Assembly: GCA_038245195.1 (NCBI GenBank)
Contig: JBBRSU010000001.1
Span: 192,121-256,120, forward strand
From: Candidatus Saccharimonadales bacterium
Lineage (GTDB): Bacteria; Patescibacteriota; Saccharimonadia; Saccharimonadales; UBA10212
DNA: 64,000 nt
Direction of reading: 5' to 3'
The position numbers were made by a program, and so were the translations under genes. Positions 3,782 to 34,076 of the stretch are shown in pieces (positions within the stretch are counted from its first letter, which is position 1; each line of letters starts with the position of its first letter). The notes under the pieces are model-generated. The model did no database searches, had not been told where the DNA came from, and was given only the letters and a program-made list of their open reading frames with translations.

Positions 3782-3975
3782 TTGCTTCTCTCCTTCCGAG
3801 AGTGACAGCGATGACAGGTGCGAGCCTGTAGGCCCATGACTTATTGTGTTCAACCTCTCGGCCTCCCACCTCAGTCTTGAGCATATATTACCATAAGTTT
3901 AATAAAAAAGCAATACCTTTTTAAATAAACTTTAGCAATTAACTTCTTAGTCAGGCTGTGGGATTATTGGTCTGC

Positions 3976-5415
3976 ATGAGGAAGTTTCGGCGAACCACTC
4001 TTATTACAGTATTCTGCATATCCGTATTGGCTGGCCTCGCTCTAGCCAGAAAAACCGCTTTAGTACCGAACTTCTGGTTGTGGATACTCATACCAGCATT
4101 TATCCGTATAAAAAGCCGACGGGCTGCCCATCTGTTATTAATTATCGGGCTTGGATGTGGATTGGGTTTGTGGAGGGGCGGGGTATATATGCAAAACTTG
4201 GCAGAGTTACGACAGCTTTCGGCCCAAAAGGTGGTAGTCCGGGCAACCGTAACCACCGATTCGGTTTATTCGGCCCGTTCCCAAATTGAATTTACCGCCA
4301 AAAATATTCAGCTCGTGCAGCCAAATAGCAAACCGCTAGCCGGGAGCTTTAAAATAAGTGGGTTTGGAGTGCCGATTGTCTACCGGGGCGACCAAGTTTT
4401 GGTATCCGGCAAATTATTTCCTATGCGCGGTAGTAACCAGGGTCGGATAGCCTATGCAAAGCTTCAAAAAGTTGGAGCGGGTAGTAGTGCTATAAACGAT
4501 TTTACTCGCAAGTTTGATGCCGGTATGCAAAGTGCTTTGCCGGAACCGATGGCTTCGTTTGGTCTGGGACTGTTAATCGGCCAACGAAACACTCTGCCGG
4601 CCAACATCACAGCCGCTTTAACGGCTGTAGGACTAGTCCATATTGTGGCAGTTTCGGGTTACAACTTAACGATAATTGTGCGCGGTGTCGGCCGGCTAAA
4701 GCTGGGTTCAAAGTATCAAAAACTACTGGCTTCACTGTTATTAATAGCTGGTTTTGTATTAGTGACCGGCTTTAGTGCATCTATCGTTCGGGCAGCTTTG
4801 GTATCGGGTCTGAGCCTGTGGGCTTGGTACTATGGCCGTCGCCTAAAGCCCCTAGTTCTAATCAGTTTTGCGGCCGCCATAACTGGTTTTTGGAACCCGT
4901 TTTATGTATGGGGCGATTTAAGCTGGTACTTATCTTTCTTAGCATTTTTTGGGGTATTAGTAATAGCACCGCTAATCGCTGCTCGATTCTTTAAACAGCA
5001 GCCCAAACTGCTCACCATGGTCTTGCTAGAAACGTTGTCGGCCGAGCTAATGACCTTACCACTAATTCTTATGACATTCGGTCAGCTTTCAATTATCGCG
5101 CTAATAGCTAACGTTTTAGTTGTGCCATTAGTGCCTCTAGCCATGTTGTTATCGGCAACTGCCGGACTTTGCGGGGCCTTAATCCCACAATTCGCTGGCT
5201 GGTTTGCCTTGCCGGCCCGGATTCTGCTGACCTACATGCTTGATATTGTCCACCTGCTGGCCAGTATTCCTTCGGTTCTAGTTCATCGGAGTGTTAGTGC
5301 TAGCTACATGCTGGCTTTATACGGCTTAGTTTTGATGATGGTTTTAGTAATTCATAAGAAGATGCCCAAACGCCAGAAACCAATTGTCGAGGAAGCCGCT
5401 GTTGCTTTCCAATAA
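3976..5415 (+). CDS. comEC: ComEC/Rec2 competence channel protein (no C-terminal metallo-beta-lactamase domain)
   Basis: Polytopic membrane protein with the VGLVHIVAVSGYNLTIIV competence-domain motif. Start is ambiguous: GTG at 3958 or ATG at 3976. Confidence 0.85.
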   Translation: MRKFRRTTLITVFCISVLAGLALARKTALVPNFWLWILIPAFIRIKSRRAAHLLLIIGLGCGLGLWRGGVYMQNLAELRQLSAQKVVVRATVTTDSVYSARSQIEFTAKNIQLVQPNSKPLAGSFKISGFGVPIVYRGDQVLVSGKLFPMRGSNQGRIAYAKLQKVGAGSSAINDFTRKFDAGMQSALPEPMASFGLGLLIGQRNTLPANITAALTAVGLVHIVAVSGYNLTIIVRGVGRLKLGSKYQKLLASLLLIAGFVLVTGFSASIVRAALVSGLSLWAWYYGRRLKPLVLISFAAAITGFWNPFYVWGDLSWYLSFLAFFGVLVIAPLIAARFFKQQPKLLTMVLLETLSAELMTLPLILMTFGQLSIIALIANVLVVPLVPLAMLLSATAGLCGALIPQFAGWFALPARILLTYMLDIVHLLASIPSVLVHRSVSASYMLALYGLVLMMVLVIHKKMPKRQKPIVEEAAVAFQ

Positions 5416-8803: not shown

Positions 8804-9754
8804 ATGAGTTTTTTGGAACAACTACCTAAGCCATTCTTTGTTTTGGCACCGATGGACGATGTTACAGACACGGTTTTCCGTCAAATTGTAGCGGGTTGTG
8901 CCAAGCCCGATTTAATGTTCACCGAATTCGTGAATGTTGATGGTCTGCAAAGCCCGGGCAGGGAACATCTAATGCATAAGCTCAAGCTATCGACCGCCGA
9001 AGGCCCGGTGGTGGCTCAGCTATGGGGCTTAAAACCTGAGAATTATTACAAAACTACTAAAGAGATTATCGAAATGGGCTTTGCCGGAGTGGATATTAAC
9101 ATGGGCTGCCCGGTAAAAACTGTTATTAAAAATGGTGCTTGTGCGGCACTTATAAATAACCGCCTGCTGGCTGGGGAAATCATTGATGCCGTCAAAGCAG
9201 CAGCAGGGGACACCCTGCCCGTCTCTGTTAAAACTCGTGTGGGTTTTACAACGATTGATATGAGCTGGATTGTTTTTTTGCTCAATAAAAAAATACTTAA
9301 CATGTTAAGTATTCATGGCCGGACGGCCAAGCAATTATCTAGCGTTCCAGCTAACTGGGACTTGATAGGCCAAGCCGCACAACTGCACACTTCCCTTTCA
9401 CCTTCAACTTTAATAGTTGGTAATGGTGATGTGATGAACCTCCAAGAGGCCGAGGATTTGGCAAAAAAACATAATTTAGATGGAGTGATGATTGGCCGCG
9501 GTATTTTTCATGACCCATTTGCGTTTGCTCAGGAAAGTCCGTGGCAGGGCTGGACCAAAGACCAAAAACTGCAACTTTTTGTTAAACATATAGAACTCTA
9601 TCTAAAAACTTATCAAGACGGTCAGCGCCGGTTCGAAACTTTGCGAAAATTCTGCAAAGTCTACATCAATGGCTTTGACGGAGCATCAGAACTTCGGACC
9701 AAATTTATGAATAGCAATACTCCAAACGAAGCCCTGGAGTTGCTAAAACAATAG
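8804..9754 (+). CDS. dus: tRNA-dihydrouridine synthase
   Basis: FVLAPMDDVTDTVFR, GVDINMGCP (catalytic Cys) and SIHGRT. Confidence 0.9.
   Translation: MSFLEQLPKPFFVLAPMDDVTDTVFRQIVAGCAKPDLMFTEFVNVDGLQSPGREHLMHKLKLSTAEGPVVAQLWGLKPENYYKTTKEIIEMGFAGVDINMGCPVKTVIKNGACAALINNRLLAGEIIDAVKAAAGDTLPVSVKTRVGFTTIDMSWIVFLLNKKILNMLSIHGRTAKQLSSVPANWDLIGQAAQLHTSLSPSTLIVGNGDVMNLQEAEDLAKKHNLDGVMIGRGIFHDPFAFAQESPWQGWTKDQKLQLFVKHIELYLKTYQDGQRRFETLRKFCKVYINGFDGASELRTKFMNSNTPNEALELLKQ
9292..9313. repeat. palindrome family copy D (AATACTTAAC-AT-GTTAAGTATT) inside dus
   Basis: Perfect 22-bp palindrome preceded by an A-run. Encodes KILNMLSI. Confidence 0.8.
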
Positions 9755-12208: not shown

Positions 12209-12367
12209 TTGAAGAGTGAGCCCCATAGGCCTCCATGGCTCGCCTGTCTTCTAGATGAGAAGTATAGGTCTCTACCGGGGGTGAAATTCGGGTTTACCGA
12301 AAAAGGCTGGGACTTGCTGTCAATAGTCGAGAGCATGGCCGACTGGGGCAACAAATATACTAAATAA
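12209..12367 (+). pseudogene. remnant of an HxlR-type transcriptional regulator (C-terminal ~50 codons only)
   Basis: The open frame reads ...YRSLPGVKFGFTEKGWDLLSIVESMADWGNKYTK*, resembling the HxlR wing/C-terminus (Y.LT.kG..L...l..l..WG). No N-terminal half and no start codon. Confidence 0.35.
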
Positions 12368-12393
12368 AAAACTCCCAGAACTGGGAGTTTTTT
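12366..12393. terminator. bidirectional intrinsic terminator
   Basis: AAAAAACTCCCAG-AA-CTGGGAGTTTTTT. Serves the convergent RRM gene and the HxlR remnant. Confidence 0.8.
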
Positions 12394-12410
12394 AAATCGA
12401 TTGGTAAAAA

Positions 12411-17571: not shown

Positions 17572-18189
17572 ATGGCAGACAATTCTAATCAGGCTCCTCC
17601 TGCAACTCCTCCACCTCTAAAAGGTGTTTCATCTCAGAGGAGTGAAGATATGTTGGAGCCCGGCGAGTCTATCTTGAGCGTAGTTCATCGTTCGGCAATT
17701 GGCTTAGCCGGTATATATCTGGTAGCGATTGTAGCCGTGGTTGCCATTTTTGGCTTAATAATTGCATTATCACCTGATACTTTTAACTCCAGCGGCGATT
17801 CAATTTCAATTCAGTTAACGGCAATTATGGTGGTTGGAGCCGCTTTGTTAGTCTTGATACTATTCACGGCCACTTACGTGTATCGACAAAGCCGACTGTT
17901 GGTTACCGACAAGAGCCTGGTCCAGATACTCCAAAAAACTCTATTCATCAGAAAAGTTTCACGCCTGAGTATGTCGAATGTTGAAGATGTAAATGAGGAA
18001 CAACGCGGTATTTTAGCTAGCATCTTTAATTTCGGAACACTGACAGTTCAGACTGCCGGAACTGAGGATAATTTTGTATTTACATTGTGCCCAAACCCAG
18101 CTAATTTGGCGGACAAGATTATTGAAGCTCGCCAAGCCTACGCTAAAGCCACCGAGGAAGAACAAGCCCACGCTGCCCAATATACTTAG
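17572..18189 (+). CDS. bacterial PH-domain (YdbS/YdbT-like) membrane protein
   Basis: Two TM helices followed by YRQSRLLVTDKSLVQ...FGTLTVQTAG. Confidence 0.5.
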   Translation: MADNSNQAPPATPPPLKGVSSQRSEDMLEPGESILSVVHRSAIGLAGIYLVAIVAVVAIFGLIIALSPDTFNSSGDSISIQLTAIMVVGAALLVLILFTATYVYRQSRLLVTDKSLVQILQKTLFIRKVSRLSMSNVEDVNEEQRGILASIFNFGTLTVQTAGTEDNFVFTLCPNPANLADKIIEARQAYAKATEEEQAHAAQYT

Positions 18190-18201
18190 CAACTATAGTA
18201 T

Positions 18202-18507
18202 TTATTCCTGGAAAGGGTTAGTCCGGGCTTGCTCGAATAAAGTATGGATTTGAGTATTGCTCTGCTCTAGTGATTGAATGTGGCTGATGGCTTTTTGATC
18301 GACTTGGGGGATAACAAGTGGATTAGAGGCGGTCTTATCAGCTGCTGGCTCGGCTTTAGCAAATCCGCTAATTTTATACACTACAAAGATGTAAGCCAAA
18401 AGTACCACAATAACTGACCCAAAAGCCGCATGCCGACTGTATTTCTTAAGAAACTTACTGATCGACGATTTAAGATTGAGATTTTTAACGCTTAATTCTT
18501 TGCTCAT
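18202..18507 (-). CDS. small single-pass membrane protein at the distal end of the pilus operon
   Basis: One TM helix. 4-nt overlap with the upstream gene. Confidence 0.45.
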   Translation of the reverse strand: MSKELSVKNLNLKSSISKFLKKYSRHAAFGSVIVVLLAYIFVVYKISGFAKAEPAADKTASNPLVIPQVDQKAISHIQSLEQSNTQIHTLFEQARTNPFQE

Positions 18508-19238
18508 GGCTTTATAAATATGTTAACCGTTAGAGTAAAAGATAGCGACTGGGTCTTGGTGGGTGGCTGGACGATTACCTGAGTAATTTGAGCGGTGTGA
18601 CGATTATTTTCAATACGGCTCAGAAAATCGAGCATTTTGGGGTAGGTTATTTGCAGAGCGGCTGGAACTAGGGGCCCAGATTCTGGAGAAATGGTTAGCT
18701 CTAAACTGTATAAGCCAGGAATATCGGCAACCGGTTTGGCTTGGGTTAGTACGCTGGCCGTAGATGAGGCGGAGGTGGCGTCCTGTGGTGTGGTGGTTGT
18801 AGTTGTGGTGGCCCGCAGCCCCAGGTTACTCACCGGAAAAGTTATGCTTTGGAGTGACAGGCCAGAAGCACTAGCCATCTGGAAAATCTCCAACACCGAT
18901 TCGGCCTGGTTTTTATCACTGGGGATAACGGTTTTAGCCACATCTTTAAAGTAAGCGTATTTTTCTACATCTCTTTTTGATTGTTCTAAATTCAGCAGCT
19001 CATTATCGGTCGATTGGCTTTTAGCTTTTAAATCGACCAATGATTTACTTTTAGCGCTGATTAATGACAACCCACTAGAAGTTATTACAAAGAAAATAAT
19101 CACCAATAACGTGAGTGTCCCCATCATAACTAATCTGAGATTTTTGCTGTTTAGCTCAAATTTTCGACGTTTTACAACTTTGCTGGTTGGTTGGCTGGGT
19201 GGTTTTAGGATGGCCTTGTCTTGTTTTGGCGGAATCAT
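18504..19238 (-). CDS. PilO-like type IV pilus assembly protein
   Basis: N-terminal TM helix plus coiled coil. Position after pilM-pilN. Overlapping stop/start codons. Confidence 0.5.
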   Translation of the reverse strand: MIPPKQDKAILKPPSQPTSKVVKRRKFELNSKNLRLVMMGTLTLLVIIFFVITSSGLSLISAKSKSLVDLKAKSQSTDNELLNLEQSKRDVEKYAYFKDVAKTVIPSDKNQAESVLEIFQMASASGLSLQSITFPVSNLGLRATTTTTTTPQDATSASSTASVLTQAKPVADIPGLYSLELTISPESGPLVPAALQITYPKMLDFLSRIENNRHTAQITQVIVQPPTKTQSLSFTLTVNIFIKP

Positions 19239-19834
19239 GTTTTACTCCGGCTCGGGACGCTTAAGAATTTAGTCTGAGCTGTTTTTGAGAACAGTGCCCT
19301 TAGTGTAACTGTACATTTATAGTCATCTGGAATACTAGAACTGCAGTTCACGCTGATGATATCTACTTTAGAGAATAGCTGATTTTGAGGGTCGCTAAGA
19401 TTTACGGCAATTTGGGTGGCAGAGGTATAGTCTTTGGCATTAGCGGTAAAATCGATAGCTCCATTGACTTTATTACTAAGACTGAGTGCCCCCAAAACCG
19501 TACCAGGCGGCATATCATTGCCGATGGCTTGGATTAACTCCGAGAACCGAACTTCTTGGCTTAAAACCTTATTTATGACGGTAATATCGCCAGTTATTTC
19601 TTTGGCGTCTTTTTGGACTTGGCTTAAGTTTTGCTCTTTGAGCTGAGTATTTACAGAAACTATGTGTTTTTGGAGGTTTTTGGATTGCTGATCGATATAG
19701 ACCCAACCACTTACAAGGATTACGATTAAACCGCCGATGGCAATGGCTATACCGAACAACCAGATGCGCAGGGTGGTGTTTTGGCGGCCAAAGCGGATGG
19801 CATCGGCCCTTGATGGAGGCAGTAGATTAATCAT
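19235..19834 (-). CDS. pilN: PilN-like type IV pilus assembly protein
   Basis: N-terminus MINLLP conserved as in PilN, one TM helix. Translationally coupled to pilM. Confidence 0.65.
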   Translation of the reverse strand: MINLLPPSRADAIRFGRQNTTLRIWLFGIAIAIGGLIVILVSGWVYIDQQSKNLQKHIVSVNTQLKEQNLSQVQKDAKEITGDITVINKVLSQEVRFSELIQAIGNDMPPGTVLGALSLSNKVNGAIDFTANAKDYTSATQIAVNLSDPQNQLFSKVDIISVNCSSSIPDDYKCTVTLRALFSKTAQTKFLSVPSRSKT

Positions 19835-20901
19835 GCGTTAACTTCCAGTGGTTCGATAATTGCTTCGCCAGCAACGGTAATAAACATAGATAAATCGGGT
19901 TCCTGGGGCTTTACAAGCTGTCCAAAATCAATAATTTCCCAGGGGTTTAAGTTTTCAGTAGGCAAGCGTAATTCTTGGGAAATATATTGGTTAAAACCGG
20001 GCATTACCGCTCCCCCACCAACGGTAATGATTTTGGTGATATTTTTACCAGCATTGTTAGTGCGTTCACTGTAAAACCGGATGGATTTTTGAGTTTCATG
20101 AATAAAGGTATCAAGCTGAGGTTTAAGAGCATCGATAATCCGCTGTTGTTTATCGCTAAAAGCAATACCATATTGATTTTTAAGCTCGGTGGCCTGCTCA
20201 ATATTCATATGCATCGACCTAGATATCAGATTGCTAAAAGTATCACCGCCACCATTCATGGTGCTAGACACCAATAGGCTTTTATCAAAGATGGCAATGT
20301 CGGTAGCTAGCGAGCCGATATCAACCAGAATTGCCGGTTCGGCACTCATGTTGCCGACGATTTTGAGCAAGCGTGAAGCGGCATTGATACTGGGCTCGAA
20401 AGCGACCGGCTCTAAATCGAGTGATTGTAAAAGGTCTAAGTAACTATCGACAATTTTTTTGGAGGTCGCAACCATCAAAAGCTCCATTTGTTGTTCGTCT
20501 TCATAAGAAATTTCGTAATCAAGGTAAAGACTATCCAGAGGAATCGGTATATACTGCTCAGCTTCAAGCTGTACTGCCTCTTTGATATGCTCGCGATTCA
20601 TTATAGGAATCTTCATTGGTCGGCTGAAGGTGTAGGCGGTTGGCAAAGTACAGGCAACTCGACGGCTAGTTATCTTGCCTACCAGATTTTTATCGAACAG
20701 CTCGTGCATGGCTTTGGCAATAACCTCGGGGTTAATGATTACGCCGTTCTGAATAGAACCCAAAGCAAAATTACTAATTCCATAGCCTTTTATAACTGGC
20801 GGGTGGCCAGAAACCTTGTCTATTTGCATAGCCTTTAAATTGGTGTGGCCGATATCCAGTCCGAAGAGCGGTTCGTCCTTATAAAATTTTACGGTGCCCA
20901 T
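19831..20901 (-). CDS. pilM: type IV pilus assembly ATPase-fold protein PilM
   Basis: Actin-like fold motifs GLDIGHTNLKA and DIGSLATDIA. 356 aa. Confidence 0.85.
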   Translation of the reverse strand: MGTVKFYKDEPLFGLDIGHTNLKAMQIDKVSGHPPVIKGYGISNFALGSIQNGVIINPEVIAKAMHELFDKNLVGKITSRRVACTLPTAYTFSRPMKIPIMNREHIKEAVQLEAEQYIPIPLDSLYLDYEISYEDEQQMELLMVATSKKIVDSYLDLLQSLDLEPVAFEPSINAASRLLKIVGNMSAEPAILVDIGSLATDIAIFDKSLLVSSTMNGGGDTFSNLISRSMHMNIEQATELKNQYGIAFSDKQQRIIDALKPQLDTFIHETQKSIRFYSERTNNAGKNITKIITVGGGAVMPGFNQYISQELRLPTENLNPWEIIDFGQLVKPQEPDLSMFITVAGEAIIEPLEVNA

Positions 20902-20962
20902 CTTGTTTATTTAGCTTATCCTTATCAGATTATATCAAGTCTTAATCTGTTATGACAGCTAA

Positions 20963-22393
20963 CTATAACCTGCGATAGCGCGTGGCATGCCAAGATAGAT
21001 TTATGGGGACTTTAGTTGAGTCGAAAGTGGAATCTAGTTTGAGATCAAAAGGTGTTCCGGGGTTAGTGGCAATGTAAATATTTTTGCCGGATAAGCCACC
21101 AATTGCCGGAGCTGCCCCAAACTTAGTTTTATCCAGGCAAACTCCATTATTGGCCAGAAAATACATGGCTGGAGCACTAGAATTACCACTGTTACCAAGA
21201 TAAATTGCACCACCCAACGGACACACGGCAACTTTGGATGCTGGGTCAGCTCCGTAAACAATTAAAATAATTGGGCCACTACCGGCGGCCGTATTAATAG
21301 AGTTAAAATTAACTGAACCTTCCACAAAAACGTACCTGGTTGTGCCTGTAGGGTTATAAAAGGTAGGGGTACAACCGCTGGCGGCACACAGGTTGGCCCG
21401 AAGATGAACGTTATCGGTGATATTGTATTGGCCGCTGGTTAAGGTTAAATCGCCAGAAGTGCCGCATGAGGCACTGACATTACTACCACTATCGGGGTAA
21501 TGAGTTTTTTTACTGTTGGCCACCGATGGTATCGAGCGCGGAAAAGCACCAGTGGTCCAGTCGTTGCAGTTGCCGGCACTGGTATAGCTGGCATCCATAT
21601 ACTGCGACCAAGGGATATAAGTTGATTGCACCTGGCTGATAGTATTTTGGTTTGCCGAAACATTAAAACCAGCATTGGTGGTGTTGCCCGGCGGACTTAT
21701 ACAGTTGTTATAAGCTAGCGTTAAATTGGTTTTAGTTTGCCCAGGCGTGCTAAAGGAAGCTGGTTTAACTAGATTGCCCGGTCCGCCAATCGAGCAATTG
21801 GTGGCACCGGTATTTTTCCCGCCAACTGTGATATTCTCGGCCACAATATTAGTGGTGTTTTTATTGGTGTTAATATAACCATTCACATATAGGTCTTTGG
21901 CATATAGGTTTTTAACACCGCTCTGGAGTTCAATTATGTTACGGCTAAGAATGCCGGTTACCGCCACAGAATCAGAGGTGTGCTGAGTAACTACTTCAAT
22001 TTTTCTGGTATAGCTCACGGTCGCAGAACTAGCTGGTGAATAGACTTTGCCGATCGCAGTAATAATTTTTTCGTTACTGGATGAGCCCGCCACGACAGTA
22101 GTTGAGTAGGTGGCTTTATATAAACTATTACTCAAAATAGTTATTTCAGTAGCACCGGTGCCAGCATAGGTGGCGGTAGGGTCGGCATTAAGATAGCCAA
22201 TGGCACTGTCGGCGCCCGATTCGGCCGCATATTGCGATTCTAGGGTTAAAACTCGGCCACGACCCCTGGATAAATTAGAAGTAGCATAAACAATTAAGGA
22301 CGATGCTAAAATCGACAAGAATAGAGTAATTACCAGAATACTTACAATAATCGAGCCGGATTCCTTGGAGATATTATTTGTATGTTTCCTCAT
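20963..22393 (-). CDS. large PilX-like pilus-associated protein (476 aa)
   Basis: N-terminal hydrophobic segment GSIIVSILVITLFLSILASS, then a Thr/Ser/Asn/Gly-rich, beta-rich body. Located in the minor pilin block. Confidence 0.5.
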   Translation of the reverse strand: MRKHTNNISKESGSIIVSILVITLFLSILASSLIVYATSNLSRGRGRVLTLESQYAAESGADSAIGYLNADPTATYAGTGATEITILSNSLYKATYSTTVVAGSSSNEKIITAIGKVYSPASSATVSYTRKIEVVTQHTSDSVAVTGILSRNIIELQSGVKNLYAKDLYVNGYINTNKNTTNIVAENITVGGKNTGATNCSIGGPGNLVKPASFSTPGQTKTNLTLAYNNCISPPGNTTNAGFNVSANQNTISQVQSTYIPWSQYMDASYTSAGNCNDWTTGAFPRSIPSVANSKKTHYPDSGSNVSASCGTSGDLTLTSGQYNITDNVHLRANLCAASGCTPTFYNPTGTTRYVFVEGSVNFNSINTAAGSGPIILIVYGADPASKVAVCPLGGAIYLGNSGNSSAPAMYFLANNGVCLDKTKFGAAPAIGGLSGKNIYIATNPGTPFDLKLDSTFDSTKVPINLSWHATRYRRL

Positions 22394-22395
22394 AG

Positions 22396-23169
22396 TTAAT
22401 TCCTTAAGGCGATTCTAATCACGGTACTGTTTTTGGTCGGGTTAGTGGCTGAAAAGCTTGGTTTTTTGGATAGATTTAGGGTTATCTCCAAAACTTCAAC
22501 AGCCGTAAAATCCGGCCCGGCATATTGCCCGGTGTTGGGGTCGATAATTGACGTATAATCAATTAAATTGCCGGTACGCGAAAAATATCGAGTGCTGACA
22601 GATCCTATGTCTGAAGCAATGGTTTTATCTAATGGGCATGATGCACTGATTTGAGCAGCCGGACAGCTGGTTTTGAGCCGGTTGCCGGCTGCGGAAGGGT
22701 TAGCTAGGCTGCGTTGCATAAGGCTTTTACCGGTACCGTCTAAGTACAAAATATACTCATCCTCGTACGGCAGAGTGCCATTCATGATGTATTGTTTGGA
22801 GCTATTCAAGCTGTAGTCACGAAAATAAATTAGGGGGGTGTAGCTACCACTGGCCGGTAGAACAGTAGTGCCGGGGATAGCATGGATTGGTAGCCAATAT
22901 TTGCCACCGGGGATTGACGGATCGGGAACTGCGGCGTTGGAATCTTGGATACTGTTCTGAATTATTAAGCCTACCGATGCCCCGATTTCATCTCGTAGAC
23001 TATCACCAGAATTGTAGCGCGTGACTAGGGTGTCATTATTCGCTGCTTGGGTGGCAGATGTTCGCCACAAATCAAAGGCAAAAACCATGATTACAATGGT
23101 GAGTAGGCTTGTAAAAATCATCGATATCAGCAACTCGGCGATAGTAAAGCCTGATTCAGTCGGCTTCAT
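22396..23169 (-). CDS. prepilin-type minor pilin (PilW-like)
   Basis: N-terminal cleavage/methylation motif SGFTIAELLISM. Confidence 0.65.
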   Translation of the reverse strand: MKPTESGFTIAELLISMIFTSLLTIVIMVFAFDLWRTSATQAANNDTLVTRYNSGDSLRDEIGASVGLIIQNSIQDSNAAVPDPSIPGGKYWLPIHAIPGTTVLPASGSYTPLIYFRDYSLNSSKQYIMNGTLPYEDEYILYLDGTGKSLMQRSLANPSAAGNRLKTSCPAAQISASCPLDKTIASDIGSVSTRYFSRTGNLIDYTSIIDPNTGQYAGPDFTAVEVLEITLNLSKKPSFSATNPTKNSTVIRIALRN

Positions 23170-23618
23170 TGTTGTCCAATTCCATTACGAGTGATGAGCA
23201 TACGTAGTTCCATGGGCGGAGCTGAAGTATTAAGATTGCTAACTTTGATGTCAATTACCTTACTATCCGGTACGCCTTGTAATGGATCAGCGTTAGGTAG
23301 TGAACTGGTTGGGGTGACAGTTAAGGTTGGAGTGTAGGTATAAACCGCACTGCCCCCATTTTCTCCGTAAAAAGTATTGTTGGGGTAGCAATTATTTGTG
23401 CCATTTACGATATCGTAATCTAGGGCCCGGTCGATTTCCGGGCAAGCACTTAAAACGGCGTACATATCGTTAAATTGTCGGGCTTGAGTATAATCGACAC
23501 TAACTGAGTGAAAGGCACTGTACATGGCAATAACAATAATCGGAAAAACTACGCAAGCTGTGGCAATCTCGACAATCGTAAATCCCTGTTGATTAAGTGG
23601 TTTTGAAAACAGTTTCAT
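23166..23618 (-). CDS. prepilin-type minor pilin (PilV-like)
   Basis: QGFTIVEIATA N-terminal motif. Confidence 0.6.
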   Translation of the reverse strand: MKLFSKPLNQQGFTIVEIATACVVFPIIVIAMYSAFHSVSVDYTQARQFNDMYAVLSACPEIDRALDYDIVNGTNNCYPNNTFYGENGGSAVYTYTPTLTVTPTSSLPNADPLQGVPDSKVIDIKVSNLNTSAPPMELRMLITRNGIGQQ

Positions 23619-23668
23619 GCTTATGTTAATTATATAGGCTTATTGATCAGAGGCTATAAAGATTAAAG

Positions 23669-23698
23669 AAAAACCCGGCTGTCTTTACCGGGTTTTTT
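23669..23698. terminator. bidirectional intrinsic terminator downstream of pilA
   Basis: AAAAACCCGG-loop-CCGGGTTTTTT. Confidence 0.75.
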
Positions 23699-23719
23699 CA
23701 GATTTTTTGTTAGCTGACT

Positions 23720-24169
23720 TTAGTTGTTAGATTGAACTGCGAAGGTTCCGCCCGCTTCTAGCGTGGCTGTCAAAACGTAGTTAGAACAGTCACCGTTAGC
23801 AGCGTTGTCGCAACCACTTGGTGTTAGGACATAACCATAGCAGCTGGAAGTTGTTGCAGCACACAATGATTGTGAACCAGCATCCTTAGGATCAGCCAAA
23901 GCCGCTGGGTCTAGGCCTTTCAAGTTAGCTGAGCGGAAAGTCGCATCATTCATGTTGGCCATGGTTGGGTACTTGGCGTTATTAGCCCAATAGGCTTCGA
24001 GCTGGCCCTGAACGGCCTTAATGTCGGTCTTGCGTTCCGTATCACGTGCTTTTTGTTGAATACCGTTATAGGTAACTATGACCAATGCAGCCAAGATACC
24101 GATTACTACGATAACAATCAAAAGCTCAACGATTGTAAAACCGCGATTGTTCTTTTTTAATGAGATCAT
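23720..24169 (-). CDS. pilA: major type IV pilin
   Basis: MISLKKNNRG|FTIVELLIVIVVIGILAA class III signal peptide with E+5. Four Cys in the C-terminal half. The ATG at 24169 is preferred over the GTG at 24181. Confidence 0.82.
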   Translation of the reverse strand: MISLKKNNRGFTIVELLIVIVVIGILAALVIVTYNGIQQKARDTERKTDIKAVQGQLEAYWANNAKYPTMANMNDATFRSANLKGLDPAALADPKDAGSQSLCAATTSSCYGYVLTPSGCDNAANGDCSNYVLTATLEAGGTFAVQSNN

Positions 24170-24294
24170 TCTATGACCCACCCTTCTTATTTTACTTTTT
24201 TTAAATTGGTTTTTAGGAACATTTACTGTTCTATGACTATGATTATAAGCATAAGCTTACTGTTGTCAACCCGTTTGCTTTCACTAGTGGAGGC

Positions 24295-25566
24295 CTAACC
24301 ACCAATGTTTTTAGACAGTGAAGCGATTGGTCCCATGACAGATGCCGCAATTAAGCCTACAAAACTACCCAAAACGATAATCATTATAGGCTCGATAATG
24401 CTAGTCATGCCATCTATCACAGCATCAACCTCTTCTTCATAAAAATCGGCAACCTTAACCAAAACTATGTCTATCTTGCCAGTTTCCTCGCCCACCGACA
24501 TCATCTGGCCGACTATCGGTGGGAAGAACTGGGCATCAAGCAGTTGCTTGCCAAGCGGCTGGCCATTTTTTACGGCTTCGGATACTTTGACTAGTTCTTT
24601 TTGAATGACAGTATTACCTACTGCTTTGCCAGTAACTTCCAGTGCATCAAGTACACTGACACCAGAGCCCATTAATGACGAGAATGTCCGGGCAAACCGA
24701 GCGATCGCCACTTTAGCCAGGATATTCCCAAGAATTGGAGTTTTTAATAGCAATAAATGCCACTTGAATCGGCCTTTAGGGGTATGGATATAACGCCTAA
24801 AATAGATTAAACCAATTACCATCAGTGCGATAATGAACACGGAATTTGGTAAAAGTTTAATAATTGGAATTTTATTAAGGATTGGTATGGAATTCATTAT
24901 GCTGTGGCCAATCAAGAAACTGCTGACGCCCAGCATGGCTCGGGTATAAACCGGCAGCTGAGCGTGTGGTCCGCCCAAATCTTTAAAAATTTTGCCAATT
25001 TTAGGTAGTATAAACAGCATAATTCCAAAGAATGCCACCACAGTGATGGTTAAAATCACAATTGGATAAGCCATGGCTGATCGAATCTTCTTACGAATCG
25101 TAGCGTCTTTCTCGACCTGTGTTGCTAGGCGTTTTAAAATTTCATCCAAAATCCCGCCAGATTCACCAGCCCGTACCATATTCACGTAAACATCACTAAA
25201 AGCACTTGGGTATTTGGCCATGCCATCGGCCAGTGGTGTGCCGCTTTCCACATCATGATTGACACCGGCAATTACTTCTTTGAAGTATTTATTTTCGAGC
25301 TGGCTGGATAAGGTATCTAGGGCCCGAGGCAGGGGCACTCCAGCACTAATCATGGTTGAAAGCTCCCGCGTAAAAATCACTAAATCTTTGAGCTTAACTT
25401 TGCCTTTGCCGCTCTTGGAGCCTCTGGATTTAGTCTCTTTAACACTAAGCGGTTTATGGCCTTGGTCGCGTAAACTTTTTACAGCCTCATCGCGAGTACC
25501 AGCGGTAATGGTTCCGCTAATACTCTGACCCTGGGCGTTTATGGCGCTATAAGCAAATTCAGCCAT
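24295..25566 (-). CDS. pilC: type IV pilus platform protein PilC (GspF family)
   Basis: Two T2SF repeats. 423-aa polytopic membrane protein. Confidence 0.9.
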   Translation of the reverse strand: MAEFAYSAINAQGQSISGTITAGTRDEAVKSLRDQGHKPLSVKETKSRGSKSGKGKVKLKDLVIFTRELSTMISAGVPLPRALDTLSSQLENKYFKEVIAGVNHDVESGTPLADGMAKYPSAFSDVYVNMVRAGESGGILDEILKRLATQVEKDATIRKKIRSAMAYPIVILTITVVAFFGIMLFILPKIGKIFKDLGGPHAQLPVYTRAMLGVSSFLIGHSIMNSIPILNKIPIIKLLPNSVFIIALMVIGLIYFRRYIHTPKGRFKWHLLLLKTPILGNILAKVAIARFARTFSSLMGSGVSVLDALEVTGKAVGNTVIQKELVKVSEAVKNGQPLGKQLLDAQFFPPIVGQMMSVGEETGKIDIVLVKVADFYEEEVDAVIDGMTSIIEPIMIIVLGSFVGLIAASVMGPIASLSKNIGG

Positions 25567-25567
25567 C

Positions 25568-27364
25568 TTAGTGTTCGTTGGTAACTCTCATTATTTCTTC
25601 AAGAGTAGTTTGGCCTTGCAAGGCTTTAACCAAACCATCGGTTTGCATAGTAACCATGCCTTCTTTAATGGCTTCCATCTGTATTTGGTCGCTGGTAGAG
25701 CCACTAATAATATGTTTTTGAATTGATTGAGTGATAGGCAGTACCTCATAAATTCCCAGCCGACCCTTGAACGAGGTGGCACCGGCTTCGCCTTTCATGC
25801 GCCAAAGTTTATTCATGGTACTGCCATTGGTTGAGGGTTCGGCGTGAGCAATCGCCTGTGTGCTGTTAAGCACATTTTCCATACCAGCCTGAATAAATTG
25901 CATCTCCAGTTTATGAATCCGAGCCATGTCATCAGGAGCGTTTAGGGAAAAAGCGGTTCGAATTCGTTTGATCGTCGGCTCGTCAGGGTGAAAAATTTCA
26001 GTGCTTTCTGGAACCAATTTACGGACTAAACGTTGGGCTACCACCGCTCTAACTGTGCTGGCAATCAAAAATGGCTCGATTCCCATATCTAGTAAGCGCG
26101 GCAGGCTGGTTGCGGCATTGTTGGTGTGCAGGGTTGAGAACACTAAGTGGCCAGTTAGGGCGGCCTGTACCGCCAAGTTTGCCGTTTCAGAATCGCGAAT
26201 CTCGCCAACCATAATAATATTGGGGTCCTGGCGTAGTAGAGCCCGCAACCCATTGGCGAAGCTCATGCCGGCAACGGGGTTCACCTGGACCTGGTTAACG
26301 CCCGGAATTTTATACTCTACCGGGTCCTCGACAGTACTTATATTTACAGACGGTAAATTTAAGCGACTTAAAATACTAAACAAGCTGGTACTTTTACCAG
26401 AACCAGTTGGGCCGGTGAATAAAATCATGCCATGCGGGCTGGTGATGGCGTGTTCGAGATACTCTAGATTTGACCCCCAAAAGCCCAACTCGCGTAGAGT
26501 ATTCGGTTTACTAGATTCGTTCAAAATACGCATAACTACCTTTTCGCCATCGGCAATTGGCAGAGTACTAACACGCAGGGCGTACTCGCCGGACCCCAGG
26601 GTTACTTTAAATCGCCCGTCTTGGGGTGCACGACGCTCATCAATTTTTAAATTCGAGAGAATTTTAATACGACTAACCAGCGCGGCGATGATTTTCTTAG
26701 GCAAGCGGTTAGTTTCTCGTAATTGGCCGTCAATTCGGTAACGAATTGCTACAAATTCTTCGCGCGGCTCGATATGGATGTCGCTAGCGCCTTGTTTGAT
26801 GGCGTATTCAATTAGTAGGTTCACGGTTTTGGCGACTGGACTGTCTTCGGCGACATCAGCTTCAGATACCTCTTCTTCGCTTGGAGTGCCATCACCTTCA
26901 GCAATTACTTCAGTTAATTCCGAGCCGATATTACTACGATATTGGTCAATCGCCGCTAGAATATTCGAGCGAGTGGCAATATAGACTTTAATATTCGAGC
27001 CCAACTGTTTCTGCAAAAAGCTAAAAGCCTGGACATCGTCAGGGTCCTCCATAGCCAGCCGGCGGGTTCCATTAGGCTCTATATCAAACAGAATGGCATT
27101 GTATTGCCTGGCAATATGCTCAGGGATTTGGCCAAAGACTTCTTTTCGCAAATTTTTTGGTACCAACTCAACAAACGGCACATCGATTTTGGAGGCATAG
27201 AGTTTAGTTAAGTCAGCTTCTGGTAAAACATTGTTTTTAATAACAATATCTTGGAGTGGTTTTTTCTCGGTCTTTTGCTGTTCGAGTAAGCTATGAAGTT
27301 GCTCATCATTAACTTTACGGCTTTCTTTGAGCAATCTTATAACTAGAGCGTCGCTAATCCGCAT
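25568..27364 (-). CDS. pilB: type IV pilus assembly ATPase PilB (GspE family)
   Basis: Walker A GPTGSGKSTSL, Asp/His boxes and an N-terminal T2SSE_N-like domain. Confidence 0.92.
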   Translation of the reverse strand: MRISDALVIRLLKESRKVNDEQLHSLLEQQKTEKKPLQDIVIKNNVLPEADLTKLYASKIDVPFVELVPKNLRKEVFGQIPEHIARQYNAILFDIEPNGTRRLAMEDPDDVQAFSFLQKQLGSNIKVYIATRSNILAAIDQYRSNIGSELTEVIAEGDGTPSEEEVSEADVAEDSPVAKTVNLLIEYAIKQGASDIHIEPREEFVAIRYRIDGQLRETNRLPKKIIAALVSRIKILSNLKIDERRAPQDGRFKVTLGSGEYALRVSTLPIADGEKVVMRILNESSKPNTLRELGFWGSNLEYLEHAITSPHGMILFTGPTGSGKSTSLFSILSRLNLPSVNISTVEDPVEYKIPGVNQVQVNPVAGMSFANGLRALLRQDPNIIMVGEIRDSETANLAVQAALTGHLVFSTLHTNNAATSLPRLLDMGIEPFLIASTVRAVVAQRLVRKLVPESTEIFHPDEPTIKRIRTAFSLNAPDDMARIHKLEMQFIQAGMENVLNSTQAIAHAEPSTNGSTMNKLWRMKGEAGATSFKGRLGIYEVLPITQSIQKHIISGSTSDQIQMEAIKEGMVTMQTDGLVKALQGQTTLEEIMRVTNEH

Positions 27365-27465
27365 ATGCTTAGTATAATCGAAGTCGACTTTTTAAGCTCC
27401 AGCAATTTTTAAACAGTTATTATTGATATAATATAATTAGCAAATTAGGGATTTTGGAGGACAAA

Positions 27466-28485
27466 ATGGCAGACAAGAAAGTTAAAGACGCCCCGGCACT
27501 CAGTGGTAAAAGCCAAGCACTACAGTTGGCGGTAGATCAAATAGAAAAACAATTTGGCAGGGGCTCAATTATGCGTTTGGGCGAATCAACCACAACCGAC
27601 GTCGAAACTATTCCAAGCGGCTCAATTAGCCTCGATTTAGCATTAGGCGGTGGTATACCCAAAGGCCGGATTGTAGAAATTTATGGCCCGGAAAGTTCCG
27701 GTAAAACCACGGTTTGTTTACACGCCGTAGCCGAAGTTCAAAAATCCGGGGGCACGGCCGCTTATATTGATGCCGAACACGCTTTAGATCCGGCTTACGC
27801 CAAACGCTTGGGAGTTGATACCGACAAGCTTTTAATTAGCCAACCCGATAGTGGTGAGCAAGCTTTAGAAATCCTAGAAACTTTGGTTCGCTCTAACGCG
27901 GTTGATATCGTCGTAATAGACTCAGTGGCGGCTTTGGTGCCCCAAGCCGAAATCGAAGGCGACATGGGCGACGCTCACATGGGTCTCCAGGCCCGTTTAA
28001 TGAGCCAGGCCTTACGTAAACTAACAGCAGTAATTAATCGCTCAAAAACTACTGTTATTTTTGTTAATCAATTACGCATGAAGATTGGCGTGATGTTTGG
28101 TAACCCCGAGACAACCACCGGCGGAAATGCTCTAAAATTTTACGCTTCGGTGCGGATGGATATCCGCCGGCAGGCTCAAATAAAGCAGGCTGATGTAGTG
28201 ATTGGTAATCATGTTCGAGTTAAAGTTGTCAAAAACAAGGTTGCTCCCCCCTTCCGAGAAGCCGAATTCGATATTATGTACAACCAAGGCATTAGTCGCG
28301 AGGGCGATGTAATCGATTTGGCCGTTACCTACGAAGTAGTTGATAAAGCCGGCGCTTGGTATGAATACAAAGGCGAAAAAATTGCCCAAGGCCGTGAAGC
28401 CGCCAAAAAATTCTTGGCCGAAAACCCCAAAGCTTTTGATGAAATCGCCAAGGCCACCGTCGCAGCTGCTAATAAACCCGAGTAA
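27466..28485 (+). CDS. recA: recombinase RecA
   Basis: SD GGAGG upstream of the ATG at 27466. [10 protein letters not shown] and ALKFYASVR. Confidence 0.97.
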
Positions 28486-28954: not shown

Positions 28955-29572
28955 ATGAAAATTACTGCTATAAAGGTCCAGGTTAAAAACCCAGAGCGAG
29001 TCAGTATTTTCGTCGATAGTAAATACGAATTTTCATTGACCTTAGATGAGCTAATCAAACATAAGTTAAACAATCATGATGAATTAGATGTGTCGGCAGT
29101 CAAGAAATATAAAAAAATTTCGGCTGACGGGAAACTTCGGGCCAGAGCACTAGAGTGGCTAATTAACCGGCCGCACTCTGAGCACGAATTCCGTGATTAT
29201 TTGTATCGTAAAAAAGCCGAAACCGATCAAATCGACGGGCTTGTAGAAGAGTTTACTAATAAAGGCTATCTAAATAACGTCAAATTCGCTATTTGGTTTG
29301 CCGAACTCCAAGCTCGTCGTAATAAAAGCGACCGCCAAATTAAAGCCGAATTATATAAGAAGGGGGTCATCCGGGAAGTGGTAGACGAAACATTGCAGCA
29401 GGGAAGTGTTGATGAGCATGAAAGATTAATACAATTGATTCAAAAAAAGGCCCAACTTAGTCGTTATAAAAATGATCCTCAAAAATTAATGCAGTTTCTG
29501 GTTGGCCAAGGCTATAGCTGGCAGCTTGTAAAAGATACCATCGCTAATAACCCAGAGTATAAAAATACTTAA
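28955..29572 (+). CDS. recX: recombination regulator RecX
   Basis: Three-repeat helical protein located after recA. ARALEWL and EF..YL motifs. Confidence 0.8.
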   Translation: MKITAIKVQVKNPERVSIFVDSKYEFSLTLDELIKHKLNNHDELDVSAVKKYKKISADGKLRARALEWLINRPHSEHEFRDYLYRKKAETDQIDGLVEEFTNKGYLNNVKFAIWFAELQARRNKSDRQIKAELYKKGVIREVVDETLQQGSVDEHERLIQLIQKKAQLSRYKNDPQKLMQFLVGQGYSWQLVKDTIANNPEYKNT

Positions 29573-29586
29573 CAAGTTAAGTATTT
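29563..29586. repeat. palindrome family copy R (AAATACTTAAC-AA-GTTAAGTATTT); bidirectional terminator
   Basis: Overlaps the recX stop codon. Sits between convergent genes. Confidence 0.8.
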
Positions 29587-31968: not shown

Positions 31969-32357
31969 TAATCCTAGCCATAAGAACTGATAAACCTCAA
32001 GCCGAACTGTACATATATGATGATCACAGAAAACTGTCTGAGATAAAATGGGAAGCGCACTTAAAGTTGGCTGAAACTCTAAATGCCAAGATTAAAGAAA
32101 TACTTGATAGCTCAAGTATTTCATATGATGATCTTGAGGGCATTGCTGTATTTAGGGGTCCGGGTAGTTTTACTGGCTTGCGGATTGGAATCAGCGTGGC
32201 TAACGCCCTGGCCTATGCTCAAAATATACCGATTATCGCTAGAGGTGGCTCGGACTGGTTAGACCAAGTTATCAAGGATATGGCCCTTGGTAAAAACCAC
32301 AAAATTGCCCAGCCTGAATACGGTGCACTCCCTCATATCACCAAACCCCGCAAGTAG
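31965..32357 (+). CDS. tsaB: TsaB-like protein (short, N-terminal domain only)
   Basis: GPGSFTGLRIGISVANALA. 130 aa, compared with about 230 aa typically. Confidence 0.75.
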   Translation: MIILAIRTDKPQAELYIYDDHRKLSEIKWEAHLKLAETLNAKIKEILDSSSISYDDLEGIAVFRGPGSFTGLRIGISVANALAYAQNIPIIARGGSDWLDQVIKDMALGKNHKIAQPEYGALPHITKPRK

Positions 32358-32534: not shown

Positions 32535-34049
32535 ATGATAATAGTTACTATTGTGCTAGCAATAGTTGGTGTTTTAGTTGGCGGAGGCGGCGGTGTAGCA
32601 GTTACTCGACGTCAGCAAAGCAAACTGGCCGACGAATCAAAAAAAGAATTACAAAAAGCCAAAAAAGAAGCCGCCGAGACTATTCGCAAAGCTGAGGAAG
32701 ACGCCGCTAGGCGGATTGAGGAAGTCCGCAAAGACGAGCAGAAGCGCCGAGGCGAGCTTAAAGACATCGAGCAACGGTTAATTAACCGAGAAGACAGTTT
32801 TGATAAAAAACTCGATGATTTAGATAAGCGCTCCGAAAACCTGCGAAAGGCTGAGGCCGAAGTAGAGGACTTAAAAAACGAGATTCGAGATATTCGCACC
32901 AAACAACAAGATAAGCTTGAAAAAATTGCCAAACTCAGCAAAGTCGATGCCGCTGAAAAACTAATGCAAATGACCGAGCGCGATATTAAGAACGACCTAC
33001 TAGGCCTAATTAATAAAGCTCAAAACGACGCTAGGGAAAACGCCGAAGAACAGGCCTCACTAATCTTGGTAACTACTATGGAGCGCATGGCCAGTGAAGT
33101 GACCTCAGAGCGAACCGTAACTGCCGTAAAACTGGAAGACGAAGAGATGAAAGGTCGGATTATTGGTAAGGAAGGCCGTAACATTCAATCCCTCCAACGA
33201 GCCACTGGCGTGGACATTCTGGTAGATGAAACACCCGGGATGATTATTCTATCCAGTTTTGACCCGGTGCGTCGTGAAGTCGCCCGCCAAGCCATGGAGA
33301 TGTTACTCAAAGATGGACGTGTTCACCCCGGCCGAATTGAAGAAGTCGTTGAAAAAGCCCAAAAACAAGTTCAAAAGGATGTTATTCGGGCCGGCGAAGA
33401 CGCTGCCCGAGAAGTTGGAATTGTCGGTGTGCCAAAAGAGATCCTACAGCTTATGGGTGAGCTAAAGTACCGCACTAGCTATGGTCAAAATGTTTTGAAG
33501 CACTCCACTGAAATGGCTCAGCTAGCCGGAGTGCTAGCCGAAGAACTTGGTGCGAACGTAAAAGTTGCCAAGTATGCTGCCTTGACCCACGACATGGGCA
33601 AGGCTTTAACGCATAAAGTCGAAGGCAAGCATCACCATATTACAGGCGAAATGCTCCGTAAATACGGAGCACCCGAAGAGGTAGCCTTAGCTGCTGAGCA
33701 ACACCACGATGATGTTGACGCCACTTCTATAGAAGCCGTGATTGTTCGGGTTGTGGATGCCATTAGCAGTGCCCGGCCAGGGGCTCGTAACATTAGTGCC
33801 GAAAACTTCGCCGAGCGCATGAAAGAATTAGAAAACACTGCCTTAGGCTTTGACGGGATCGAGAAGGCTTACGCCATTAGTGCCGGCCGTGAAGTTAGGG
33901 TGTTTGTTCAGCCCAAAGCCATCGACGATCTATCAGCTATTCGGCTGGCCCGCGATATTGCCAATAAGATTGAATCTACCATGCAGTATCCCGGAACAAT
34001 CAAGGTGAATGTTATCCGTGAAACCCGTGCCATCGAATTCGCTAAATAA
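32535..34049 (+). CDS. rny: ribonuclease Y
   Basis: N-terminal TM helix, coiled coil, KH domain (GRIIGKEGRNIQ) and HD domain (LTHDMGK). Confidence 0.95.
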   Translation: MIIVTIVLAIVGVLVGGGGGVAVTRRQQSKLADESKKELQKAKKEAAETIRKAEEDAARRIEEVRKDEQKRRGELKDIEQRLINREDSFDKKLDDLDKRSENLRKAEAEVEDLKNEIRDIRTKQQDKLEKIAKLSKVDAAEKLMQMTERDIKNDLLGLINKAQNDARENAEEQASLILVTTMERMASEVTSERTVTAVKLEDEEMKGRIIGKEGRNIQSLQRATGVDILVDETPGMIILSSFDPVRREVARQAMEMLLKDGRVHPGRIEEVVEKAQKQVQKDVIRAGEDAAREVGIVGVPKEILQLMGELKYRTSYGQNVLKHSTEMAQLAGVLAEELGANVKVAKYAALTHDMGKALTHKVEGKHHHITGEMLRKYGAPEEVALAAEQHHDDVDATSIEAVIVRVVDAISSARPGARNISAENFAERMKELENTALGFDGIEKAYAISAGREVRVFVQPKAIDDLSAIRLARDIANKIESTMQYPGTIKVNVIRETRAIEFAK

Positions 34050-34076
34050 AAAATACTTAACAAGTTAAGTATTTTT
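34049..34076. repeat. palindrome family copy Y (AAAAATACTTAAC-AA-GTTAAGTATTTTT); bidirectional terminator
   Basis: 13-bp arms, starting at the last base of the rny stop codon. Confidence 0.85.

Follow-up and report, generated by a model that had tools for sequence, protein, structure and literature searches.

Operators that lie within genes can act on elongating RNA polymerase, as exemplified by the PurR site in purB and by lac O2 in lacZ. Repressors of the MarR family generally bind pseudopalindromes of about 24 bp, the recognition helices of the dimer being placed in successive major grooves and the wings in the minor grooves of the AT-rich sequence on either side (PMC3936728). AdcR and ZitR of Streptococcaceae are zinc-responsive members of this family which, as homodimers, bind the palindromic adc motif TTAACYRGTTAA over the -35/-10 region of their own operon (PMC6372160), and an oligonucleotide from group A Streptococcus containing TTAACTGGTTAA is an AdcR target (PMC4288194). 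Here we describe a palindrome with the same core, TTAAC-NN-GTTAA, in a 64,000-nucleotide stretch of the genome of a Candidatus Saccharimonadales bacterium (contig JBBRSU010000001.1, positions 192,121 to 256,120; hereafter the window), where a perfect 22-bp copy lies in frame within dus, the gene for a tRNA dihydrouridine synthase.

The palindrome is best regarded as an operator of the MarR type, resembling the AdcR box, that appears to be written into coding sequence and gene ends in this Saccharibacterial lineage. We judge it rather likely to be a high-affinity operator-type site for a homodimeric, winged-helix protein of the MarR family that is conserved in Saccharibacteria. This MarR protein would bind the palindrome, and its binding would be the reason why the copy in dus is kept. 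How genes are regulated in Saccharibacteria and other bacteria of the Candidate Phyla Radiation is almost uncharted, and searches of the literature returned no description of the motif itself, of palindromes in Saccharibacteria or of MarR in Saccharibacteria.

The palindrome in dus and its codons

The open reading frame (ORF) of dus occupies positions 8804-9754 on the forward strand and encodes 316 residues (PF01207, E=1.9e-52). Just past its middle (52% of its length) lies the 22-mer AATACTTAACATGTTAAGTATT, at 9292-9313, which reads AATACTTAAC-AT-GTTAAGTATT and which a symmetry check confirms to be a perfect palindrome, without strand of its own (surrounding sequence, CTCAATAAAAAAATACTTAACATGTTAAGTATTCATGGCCGGACG). 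It comprises the third base of Lys163 and the codons of Ile164 to Ile170 (ILNMLSI), and the frame across it is K-I-L-N-M-L-S-I-H-G-R-T. The five A residues immediately 5' of it (9287-9291), part of the AAA AAA codons of Lys162 and Lys163, prolong the AA...TT flank consensus of the motif. An earlier inspection of the letters and ORFs of the window (the sequence-only reading) had reported a perfect palindrome in frame with AAAAA before it, a peptide KILNMLSI directly before HGRT, and a difference from the copies at 29564-29585 and 34052-34073 that is confined to the centre, AT instead of AA; each of these statements agrees with the sequence, the symmetry check and the translation.

The same reading had argued that selection acts on the nucleotide sequence itself, which should be visible as synonymous-site conservation in Dus orthologues. 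Eighty orthologues (48-81% identity) were retrieved by protein similarity, and 24 non-redundant ones were scored over 179 conserved degenerate codon columns. Zero codon diversity was seen in six of the 179: the columns of L165, L168, S169 and I170 in the palindrome, that of K162, and that of an unrelated Phe. The codon at N166 is AAC in 18 of 18 cases, K162 is AAA in 21 of 21 and K163 in 19 of 21, while other Lys columns mix AAA and AAG, and the flanking H, G, R, T and A residues use two to five codons each despite being equally conserved. Within the clade at 63-81% identity CTT AAC ATG TTA AGT ATT is invariant. More distant orthologues have L(D/N)MLT(V/I)HGRT with codons that are free to vary, and where LNMLSI occurs outside the palindrome (L159, L161 and L168-170) it is written differently (CTT AAT ATG TTG TCG ATT; CTT AAC ATG CTA AGC ATT). 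Because the palindrome codons are frozen while LNMLSI elsewhere uses other codons, selection acts on nucleotides, as the sequence-only reading had proposed. No extended tract of identity surrounds the dus copy in the 24-orthologue comparison; the constraint is at the nucleotide level, limited to the motif, and old.

The alignment also bears on how the site was formed. It arose through point changes in the pre-existing L(D/N)MLT(V/I)HGRT segment, together with one extra ATA (Ile) codon. This codon, which only the window and its closest relatives have, completes the left arm and turns the one-mismatch form AAAACTTAAC into the perfect palindrome. Rickettsia palindromic elements (RPEs) illustrate that palindromes can exist in frame, and the narrow distribution of the added codon could be taken as the trace of a small mobile element of this kind, RPE-like or resembling a miniature inverted-repeat transposable element, if the palindrome is not a chance by-product of ILNMLSI. 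We give this explanation hardly any weight. The alignment needs a gap of one codon only, and orthologues without the perfect motif show no other gap and already have 14-19 of the 20 bases, an asymmetric one-mismatch form, AAACTTAAC..GTTAAGTAT, being kept in at least 11 of them. An RPE-like inserted block is thus absent from the Dus alignment, and the suggestion in the sequence-only reading that an element had inserted in frame finds no support. Chance or peptide constraint can be excluded: a scan of the 64 kb with the 22-mer, allowing up to three mismatches, gave four copies against 0.01 expected, distant Dus proteins use other codons, those of the palindrome are frozen, and in 1.3 Mb of carrier genomes all 67 occurrences of ILNxLSI are coded by the palindrome and none by other codons. 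A second near-match, ATACTAAACAYGTTAAGCTT (three to four mismatches, ILNTLSF), is found about 286 nt downstream of the main Dus site in distant orthologues (L145:4773, L162:4809, L172:4809 and L187:2646), and may be either coincidental or the remnant of a second site.

The motif in Saccharibacteria and the promoter of marR

An exact scan with ATACTTAACNNGTTAAGTAT over one genome per GTDB species (596 Gb) found the motif ATACTTAAC-NN-GTTAAGTAT in at least 118 stretches, from many Saccharibacteria species represented by metagenome-assembled genomes (MAGs). All but six of the listed stretches are labelled Saccharibacteria, Saccharimonadales or Patescibacteria, and by our own estimate chance would supply about nine matches. 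The statistics that follow refer to the 122 copies in these listed relatives and the four copies in the window (126 sites). The carriers are deeply diverged (RecX 31-56% and RecA 71-79% identical to the window proteins). All 126 sites contain the core TTAAC-NN-GTTAA within a palindrome of 20-24 bp. In the 122 listed sites both 9-nt arms are fixed and the central dinucleotide is free (TT/AA 66, AT 25, AC/GT 18, TA 6), and A is found at flank positions -1 and -2 in 64 and 52, respectively, of 74 noncoding listed sites. Copies per genome number in the tens, with at least 11 in MAG DASTHV and at least eight on the 776-kb contig of SPRUCE_438, where they are spread from 10 kb to 671 kb. In IMG/VR the 20-mer ATACTTAACNNGTTAAGTAT occurs only in two related Firmicutes-like phage contigs (L199:5873-5892 and L200:419-438), flanked by a divergent XRE-family repressor gene on one side and a GIY-YIG-like gene on the other; these copies are about as many as chance predicts and are probably an operator unrelated to Saccharibacteria. 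The matches in Sporomusa and Bacillota (L011, L054) have TA centres and divergent contexts similar to those of the phage copies. The palindrome is also present on contigs binned as Babeliales or Verrucomicrobiia (L020, L028, L075), one of which, L075, has the recA-recX-tsaEB synteny of the Saccharibacteria type with a RecA at 72% identity and probably represents a Saccharibacterial contig that was binned wrongly.

Between ksgA and a small gene with a Pfam assignment to MarR/MarR_2, six recurrent sites are found. In all seven loci found with the pattern that include this marR gene, a site with no more than one mismatch precedes its start by 25-44 nt, and in three of the seven this is not the site by which the locus was found. 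A profile of the seven MarR proteins gave 564 matches at E<=1e-10, named MarR in Saccharimonadales, and for eight of these orthologues (28-80% identity to the MarR of L027) DNA was obtained as 20-kb loci. Six of these eight protein-fetched loci have a site with up to two mismatches directly upstream of marR; the other two, from one lineage, have the degenerate core GCTTAACACGTTAAC there. Taking both sets together, 13 of 15 marR loci have a site with up to two mismatches 20-45 nt upstream and two have the degenerate core, and in the 160 kb of the protein-fetched loci there is no further site at this threshold. Where other genes lie between ksgA and marR (L202 and L207), the site stays beside marR. 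In the direction of marR the left arm is often ATACTTGAC, which provides a -35 element, TTGAC(T/G), with a TAnnnT -10 element at 17-18 nt, so that in these relatives the two-fold symmetric site covers the -35/spacer region of the regulator's own promoter, a layout typical of autorepressed MarR promoters (PMC3936728). The recognition helix, Q-T/S-E-A/P-S/N-V/I-S-R-Q, is nearly invariant despite the wide range of overall identity, and the closest solved relatives of these proteins are MepR and other MarR proteins. The motif is under purifying selection at the DNA level, is a conserved element of the marR promoter, and has the anatomy of a dimer site. Of the examples that the sequence-only reading gave for selection on the sequence, a binding site is the one that gains specific support, from the marR promoter sites and the AdcR/ZitR core.

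In loci L201-L208 the order pgk-tpi-x-uvrD/pcrA-(G5/DUF348 RpfB-like)-ksgA-marR is kept across deeply diverged Saccharibacteria, and the genes downstream of marR vary (major facilitator superfamily transporter, aminotransferase, resolvase). A subgroup of the MarR orthologues (P0050, P0065, P0076, L030 and L085) has a conserved C-terminal Cys-x7-8-Cys...PF tail, which may be a module that senses redox state or metals. Three other proteins encoded in the window were considered as binders and rejected, there being no site in their promoters. One, at 44911-46461 on the reverse strand, is a 516-residue protein that joins an N-terminal XRE-type helix-turn-helix (PF01381) to a domain of the EPSP_synthase/MurA type (PF00275). 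It is unusual for a cell-wall enzyme to carry a DNA-binding domain, and the fusion recurs at 67-74% identity in L047, L063, L072 and L077. The other two are neighbouring Crp/Fnr-like regulators at 37307-37969 (forward) and 38104-38781 (reverse), each with cNMP-binding and HTH_Crp_2 domains; in L051 and L068 their homologues have palindrome sites nearby, and no link to a promoter site was seen.

Away from marR, the copies are distributed between genes and gene ends. There is one open frame per strand through the motif, and every coding copy must therefore read I-L-N-x-L-S-I; this is the frame used by all 51 of the 126 listed sites (about 40%) that fall in ORFs of at least 120 codons. The host genes shared most widely among the listed sites are those for RecX (11 species), ValS (nine species) and an ApbE-like protein (six species); others encode TsaB, an RluB-like protein, GatB, UvrC, LigA, MurA, MurC, MurI, KsgA, FolC, glutamate dehydrogenase and a histidine kinase. 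Of 65 classifiable noncoding listed sites, 26 lie between convergent genes, 30 lie 0-27 nt after a stop codon and nine are apparently divergent, three of these nine coming from non-Saccharibacteria; in 18 of the 65 it is the TAA of the palindrome itself that ends the flanking ORF. The listed sites fall into about 47 syntenic slots, 21 of which recur across species. Within a slot the exact position shifts, as in the recA-rny region, where the site may be found within recX or at its stop, within tsaB or at its beginning, or at the stop of rny.

The window itself provides coding, convergent and post-stop examples, none of them bound to a strand. Besides the dus copy, an AA-centred copy fills the junction of the convergent genes recX (forward) and one for a 173-residue protein (reverse) at 29564-29585, with the TAA stop codon of recX falling in its left arm. 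A second AA-centred copy lies 3 nt past the rny stop (22-mer at 34052-34073) and is extended by A5/T5 flanks to a 13+2+13 palindrome at 34049-34076. The fourth, gATACTTAACAAGTTAAGTATc at 53461-53482, lies within folD and encodes EILNKLSI; its outer A-T pair is replaced by G-C (gATAC...GTATc) and it is still a perfect 22-bp palindrome. Three imperfect relatives of the motif were also recognised: ATACTTAGCAACTATAGTAT at 18182-18201, a degenerate copy at a convergent junction where L110 has a perfect one; GAAATACTTGA-TAGC-TCAAGTATTTC at 32097-32122 in tsaB, a perfect 11+4+11 palindrome at a position where L036, L053 and L060 have the perfect motif; and TACTTAATAGCTTAAGAA at 47794-47811, a degenerate copy at the 3' end of glyA in a slot that holds perfect copies in L063 and L072. 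Collectively, degenerate and variant copies in slots that are perfect elsewhere indicate the birth and decay of sites within conserved slots.

Roles of the sites and competing explanations

If the palindrome is a MarR operator, a dimer bound to the site at its own promoter, in a gene usually found beside ksgA, would constitute a classic autorepression arrangement. In some lineages, including the present one, further perfect copies would then have evolved by point mutation wherever they could be tolerated, that is, just after stop codons, at convergent junctions, or in coding helices that can be read as I-L-N-x-L-S-I. The dus copy would be one of these, its DNA sequence being held by purifying selection. 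Binding at the copies inside genes and at 3' ends would presumably have a function, and candidate roles for copies away from promoters are condition-dependent obstruction or insulation of transcription and titration of the repressor. The perfection of the palindromes suggests selection for maximal affinity, as a roadblock or a sponge would need.

Several observations weigh against this reading. Most copies lie away from promoters (51 of the 126 listed sites mid-gene, 26 convergent, 30 after a stop codon), a properly spaced -10 element is present only at the marR promoters and a few other sites, and the coding copies, mostly at relative positions of 0.3-0.8, are unrelated to gene ends. Genes whose stop codon lies inside the site, 18 of the 65 classified noncoding listed cases, would be cut short by a tight roadblock. 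The centre prefers AA/TT and AT and not the YR of the AdcR/ZitR box. The residues aligned with the AdcR zinc ligands E41 and H42 are F and R, and the full ligand set on which zinc-dependent binding would rest (E24, E41, H42, H108 and H112) is not found in the Saccharibacterial MarRs; since these ligands are missing, the proteins are not filed as AdcR/ZitR orthologues and share the DNA core only. Because marR lies outside the window, its presence in this genome has to be deduced from relatives. Finally, the sites show features that a dimer binding double-stranded DNA does not require. Among 74 noncoding listed sites, 11 have six or more extra flank pairs against 0.2 expected, the covariation of the outer stem was reached by none of 500 shuffles, and symmetric double variants occur (TTAC..GTAA three times, ACTTGAC..GTCAAGT, ACAC..GTGT).

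These last features are what would be expected if the palindrome worked as a hairpin in RNA or single-stranded DNA, serving at gene ends as a weak bidirectional terminator or as a 3'-end stabiliser resembling repetitive extragenic palindromic (REP) sequences, with the coding copies as by-products or internal attenuators and a hairpin-binding factor as the driver of conservation. The convergent and post-stop positions of the noncoding copies, and their frequent provision of the stop codon, would suit such a role, G:T single variants do occur, and the tsaB variant has remained a perfect palindrome. The rny copy is the only one in the window whose flanks give it the look of a bidirectional intrinsic terminator, folding at -10.5 and -9.5 kcal/mol on the two strands. 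We nevertheless regard this explanation as unlikely. At -5.4 to -7.5 kcal/mol the core hairpin is weak, and it has only two G-C pairs, which is why the terminator scan misses the palindrome. Tandem contexts show no directional U-tract (on average 3.8 A upstream and 3.9 T downstream, with five or more T in about 8 of 30) and no loop bias. A fixed stem with a free apical dinucleotide is the opposite of loop-specific RNA recognition, the asymmetric one-mismatch form persists in Dus orthologues, the lineage also has ordinary GC-rich terminators, and the association with marR is left unexplained. A strand-specific comparison of G:U and A:C in single-mismatch variants had few informative cases, two for an RNA hairpin and one against. 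An RNA role is unlikely for the dus copy itself, whose folding energy is -5.4 kcal/mol (z = -1.05), which is followed by no U-run in the sense direction and which lacks the G+C-rich hairpin and 3' U-tract of an intrinsic terminator. Terminator and promoter scans flagged none of the four window copies, and at Rfam gathering thresholds the window gave tRNAs only and nothing at the palindromes. The 'terminator-like' label of the sequence-only reading is thus only partly apt, and the internal attenuation it had envisaged is disfavoured. The extra pairing, the symmetric variants and the rny copy point to an added hairpin component or a template-switch origin, at least for intergenic copies, where the RNA hairpin of the same palindrome may add to the effect of bound protein. 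A canonical GC-rich bidirectional intrinsic terminator, TAAAAAACTCCCAG-AA-CTGGGAGTTTTTTA, is present in the window at 12365-12394 and is distinct from the AT-rich palindromes.

The DNA uptake sequences (DUS) of Neisseria and the uptake signal sequences (USS) of Pasteurellaceae have copies both at gene ends and in coding regions, in a frame that tolerates them, as here, and the sequence-only reading had named an uptake site as a possibility. Such a site would have accumulated through the bias of natural transformation. The motif is lineage-conserved and dispersed over the chromosome, the dus sequence has improved stepwise towards the perfect motif, and genes for ComEC, type IV pili and RecA are present in the window. 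Natural competence has been demonstrated in other Saccharibacteria (PMC10633639). An uptake signal is very improbable all the same. Uptake sequences are short asymmetric motifs present about once per kb and also singly, whereas the density here is one to two orders of magnitude lower (four copies in 64 kb; about one per 41 kb, at up to two mismatches, in the flanks of the pattern loci) and the 160 kb around marR (eight loci of 20 kb) hold no copy besides the marR site. The palindrome is moreover obligate, the half-site ATACTTAAC occurring in the window solely within the four palindromes and never alone, the dus copy has no extended identity tract around it, and an uptake function leaves the link to the marR promoter unexplained; these properties together disfavour the idea. 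Searchable literature reports no uptake sequence in Saccharibacteria. The competence genes of the window form a complete set in one 25-kb stretch, with comEC at 3958-5415 (PF03772), a type IV pilus cluster at 18202-27364 (pilM/N/O-like genes, pilins, pilC and pilB) and recA-recX at 27454-28485. The palindrome lies right at the beginning of comEC in relative L022 and just after comF in L014.

Sites of chromosome-organising proteins, such as parS, the Noc-binding sites, the SlmA-binding sites or matS, are also palindromic, number tens per genome, occur in coding or noncoding sequence and keep their position across species. A role of this type is nonetheless barely plausible: canonical parS, TGTTNCACGTGAAACA, has no above-chance match in the window and none in the 118 listed loci, the motif here being unrelated to it; the copies on the 776-kb contig are not clustered; and the best-conserved copy is the putative promoter operator of a MarR gene. 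The GC skew of the window gave no information on origin or terminus. The recA-recX neighbourhood prompted consideration of a LexA/SOS box, which was rejected on account of the position of the copies, at 3' ends or in genes, and of a spacing unlike that of GAAC-N4-GTTC; a literature search for a LexA motif in Patescibacteria found nothing. REP elements mobilised by REP-associated tyrosine transposases (RAYTs) were likewise rejected, about 40% of listed copies being in ORFs and no GTAG flank being present.

A bolder form of the MarR operator reading, which we hold to be possible and put forward only tentatively, is that one MarR-family protein uses dozens of perfect palindromes as a genome-wide switch or insulator in a subset of Saccharibacteria, a group with very few transcription factors. 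Its sites would be in housekeeping coding sequences and at gene ends rather than in promoters, and it might work through condition-dependent elongation blocks, through boundaries of transcription units in a genome that lacks intergenic space, or as a built-in repressor sponge; recoding, even by an added codon, would have allowed dus, valS, recX and folD to carry sites. Should the copies away from promoters be functional, this ultra-compact genome, whose intergenic regions are tiny, would place regulatory or boundary sites within genes and on stop codons. The ksgA-linked MarR and its AdcR-box-like palindrome of 20-24 bp are in any case a candidate regulator-operator pair across deeply diverged species. 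The dus copy also offers an instance of overlapping codes in nature, with five consecutive codons of a conserved enzyme synonymously frozen and one added while a DNA motif is kept. The motif can serve as a lineage marker in metagenomes, and is a caveat for codon-based tests of selection and for the recoding or engineering of these organisms.

Comparison with known operators and repeats

The described system closest to the palindrome is that of AdcR and ZitR, with which it has in common an identical 12-bp core, TTAAC-NN-GTTAA, and the overlap with the -35/-10 elements of the regulator's own promoter (PMC6372160, PMC4288194). The recognition helices are also alike, QTEASVSRQIK in the Saccharibacterial proteins against xSQAAVTKAIK in AdcR. 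In contrast to the adc motif, the site here extends over 20-24 bp, with ATAC/GTAT extensions and AA/TT flanks, most copies lie outside promoters and 40% of those listed are within ORFs, and the Saccharibacterial MarRs are no closer in sequence to AdcR than to MepR. Autoregulation of the mepR type offers a parallel in its palindrome of about 24 bp per dimer over the regulator's own promoter elements (PMC3936728); the MepR site, GTTAG-N4-CTAAC, has a different half-site orientation from the CTTAAC-N2-GTTAAG found here. Dispersed perfect copies in coding sequence are not a described feature of MarR regulons.

For the location of the dus copy the nearest parallels are PurR/purB and lac O2, in which a palindromic repressor site lies within coding sequence and codons and operator are jointly constrained. 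There, single degenerate sites are found near the 5' end, whereas the predicted sites here are perfect palindromes, mid-gene, in many unrelated housekeeping genes. DUS and USS resemble the motif in being lineage-specific, in occupying tolerated coding frames and terminator-like inverted repeats, in keeping orthologous positions and in having a competent host, but they are asymmetric 9-12-mers present about once per kb, in contrast to an obligate 20-bp palindrome that occurs about once per 16-200 kb and is tied to the promoter of a regulator. REPs and the bacterial interspersed mosaic elements (BIMEs) that they form are likewise repeated palindromic hairpins at 3' ends and convergent junctions with covarying stems. 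REPs, however, are imperfect, about 35 bp long, marked by a 5' GTAG, strictly extragenic, species-specific and spread by RAYT transposases, whereas the copies described here come from point mutation, are common to deeply diverged species and are found in ORFs as well.

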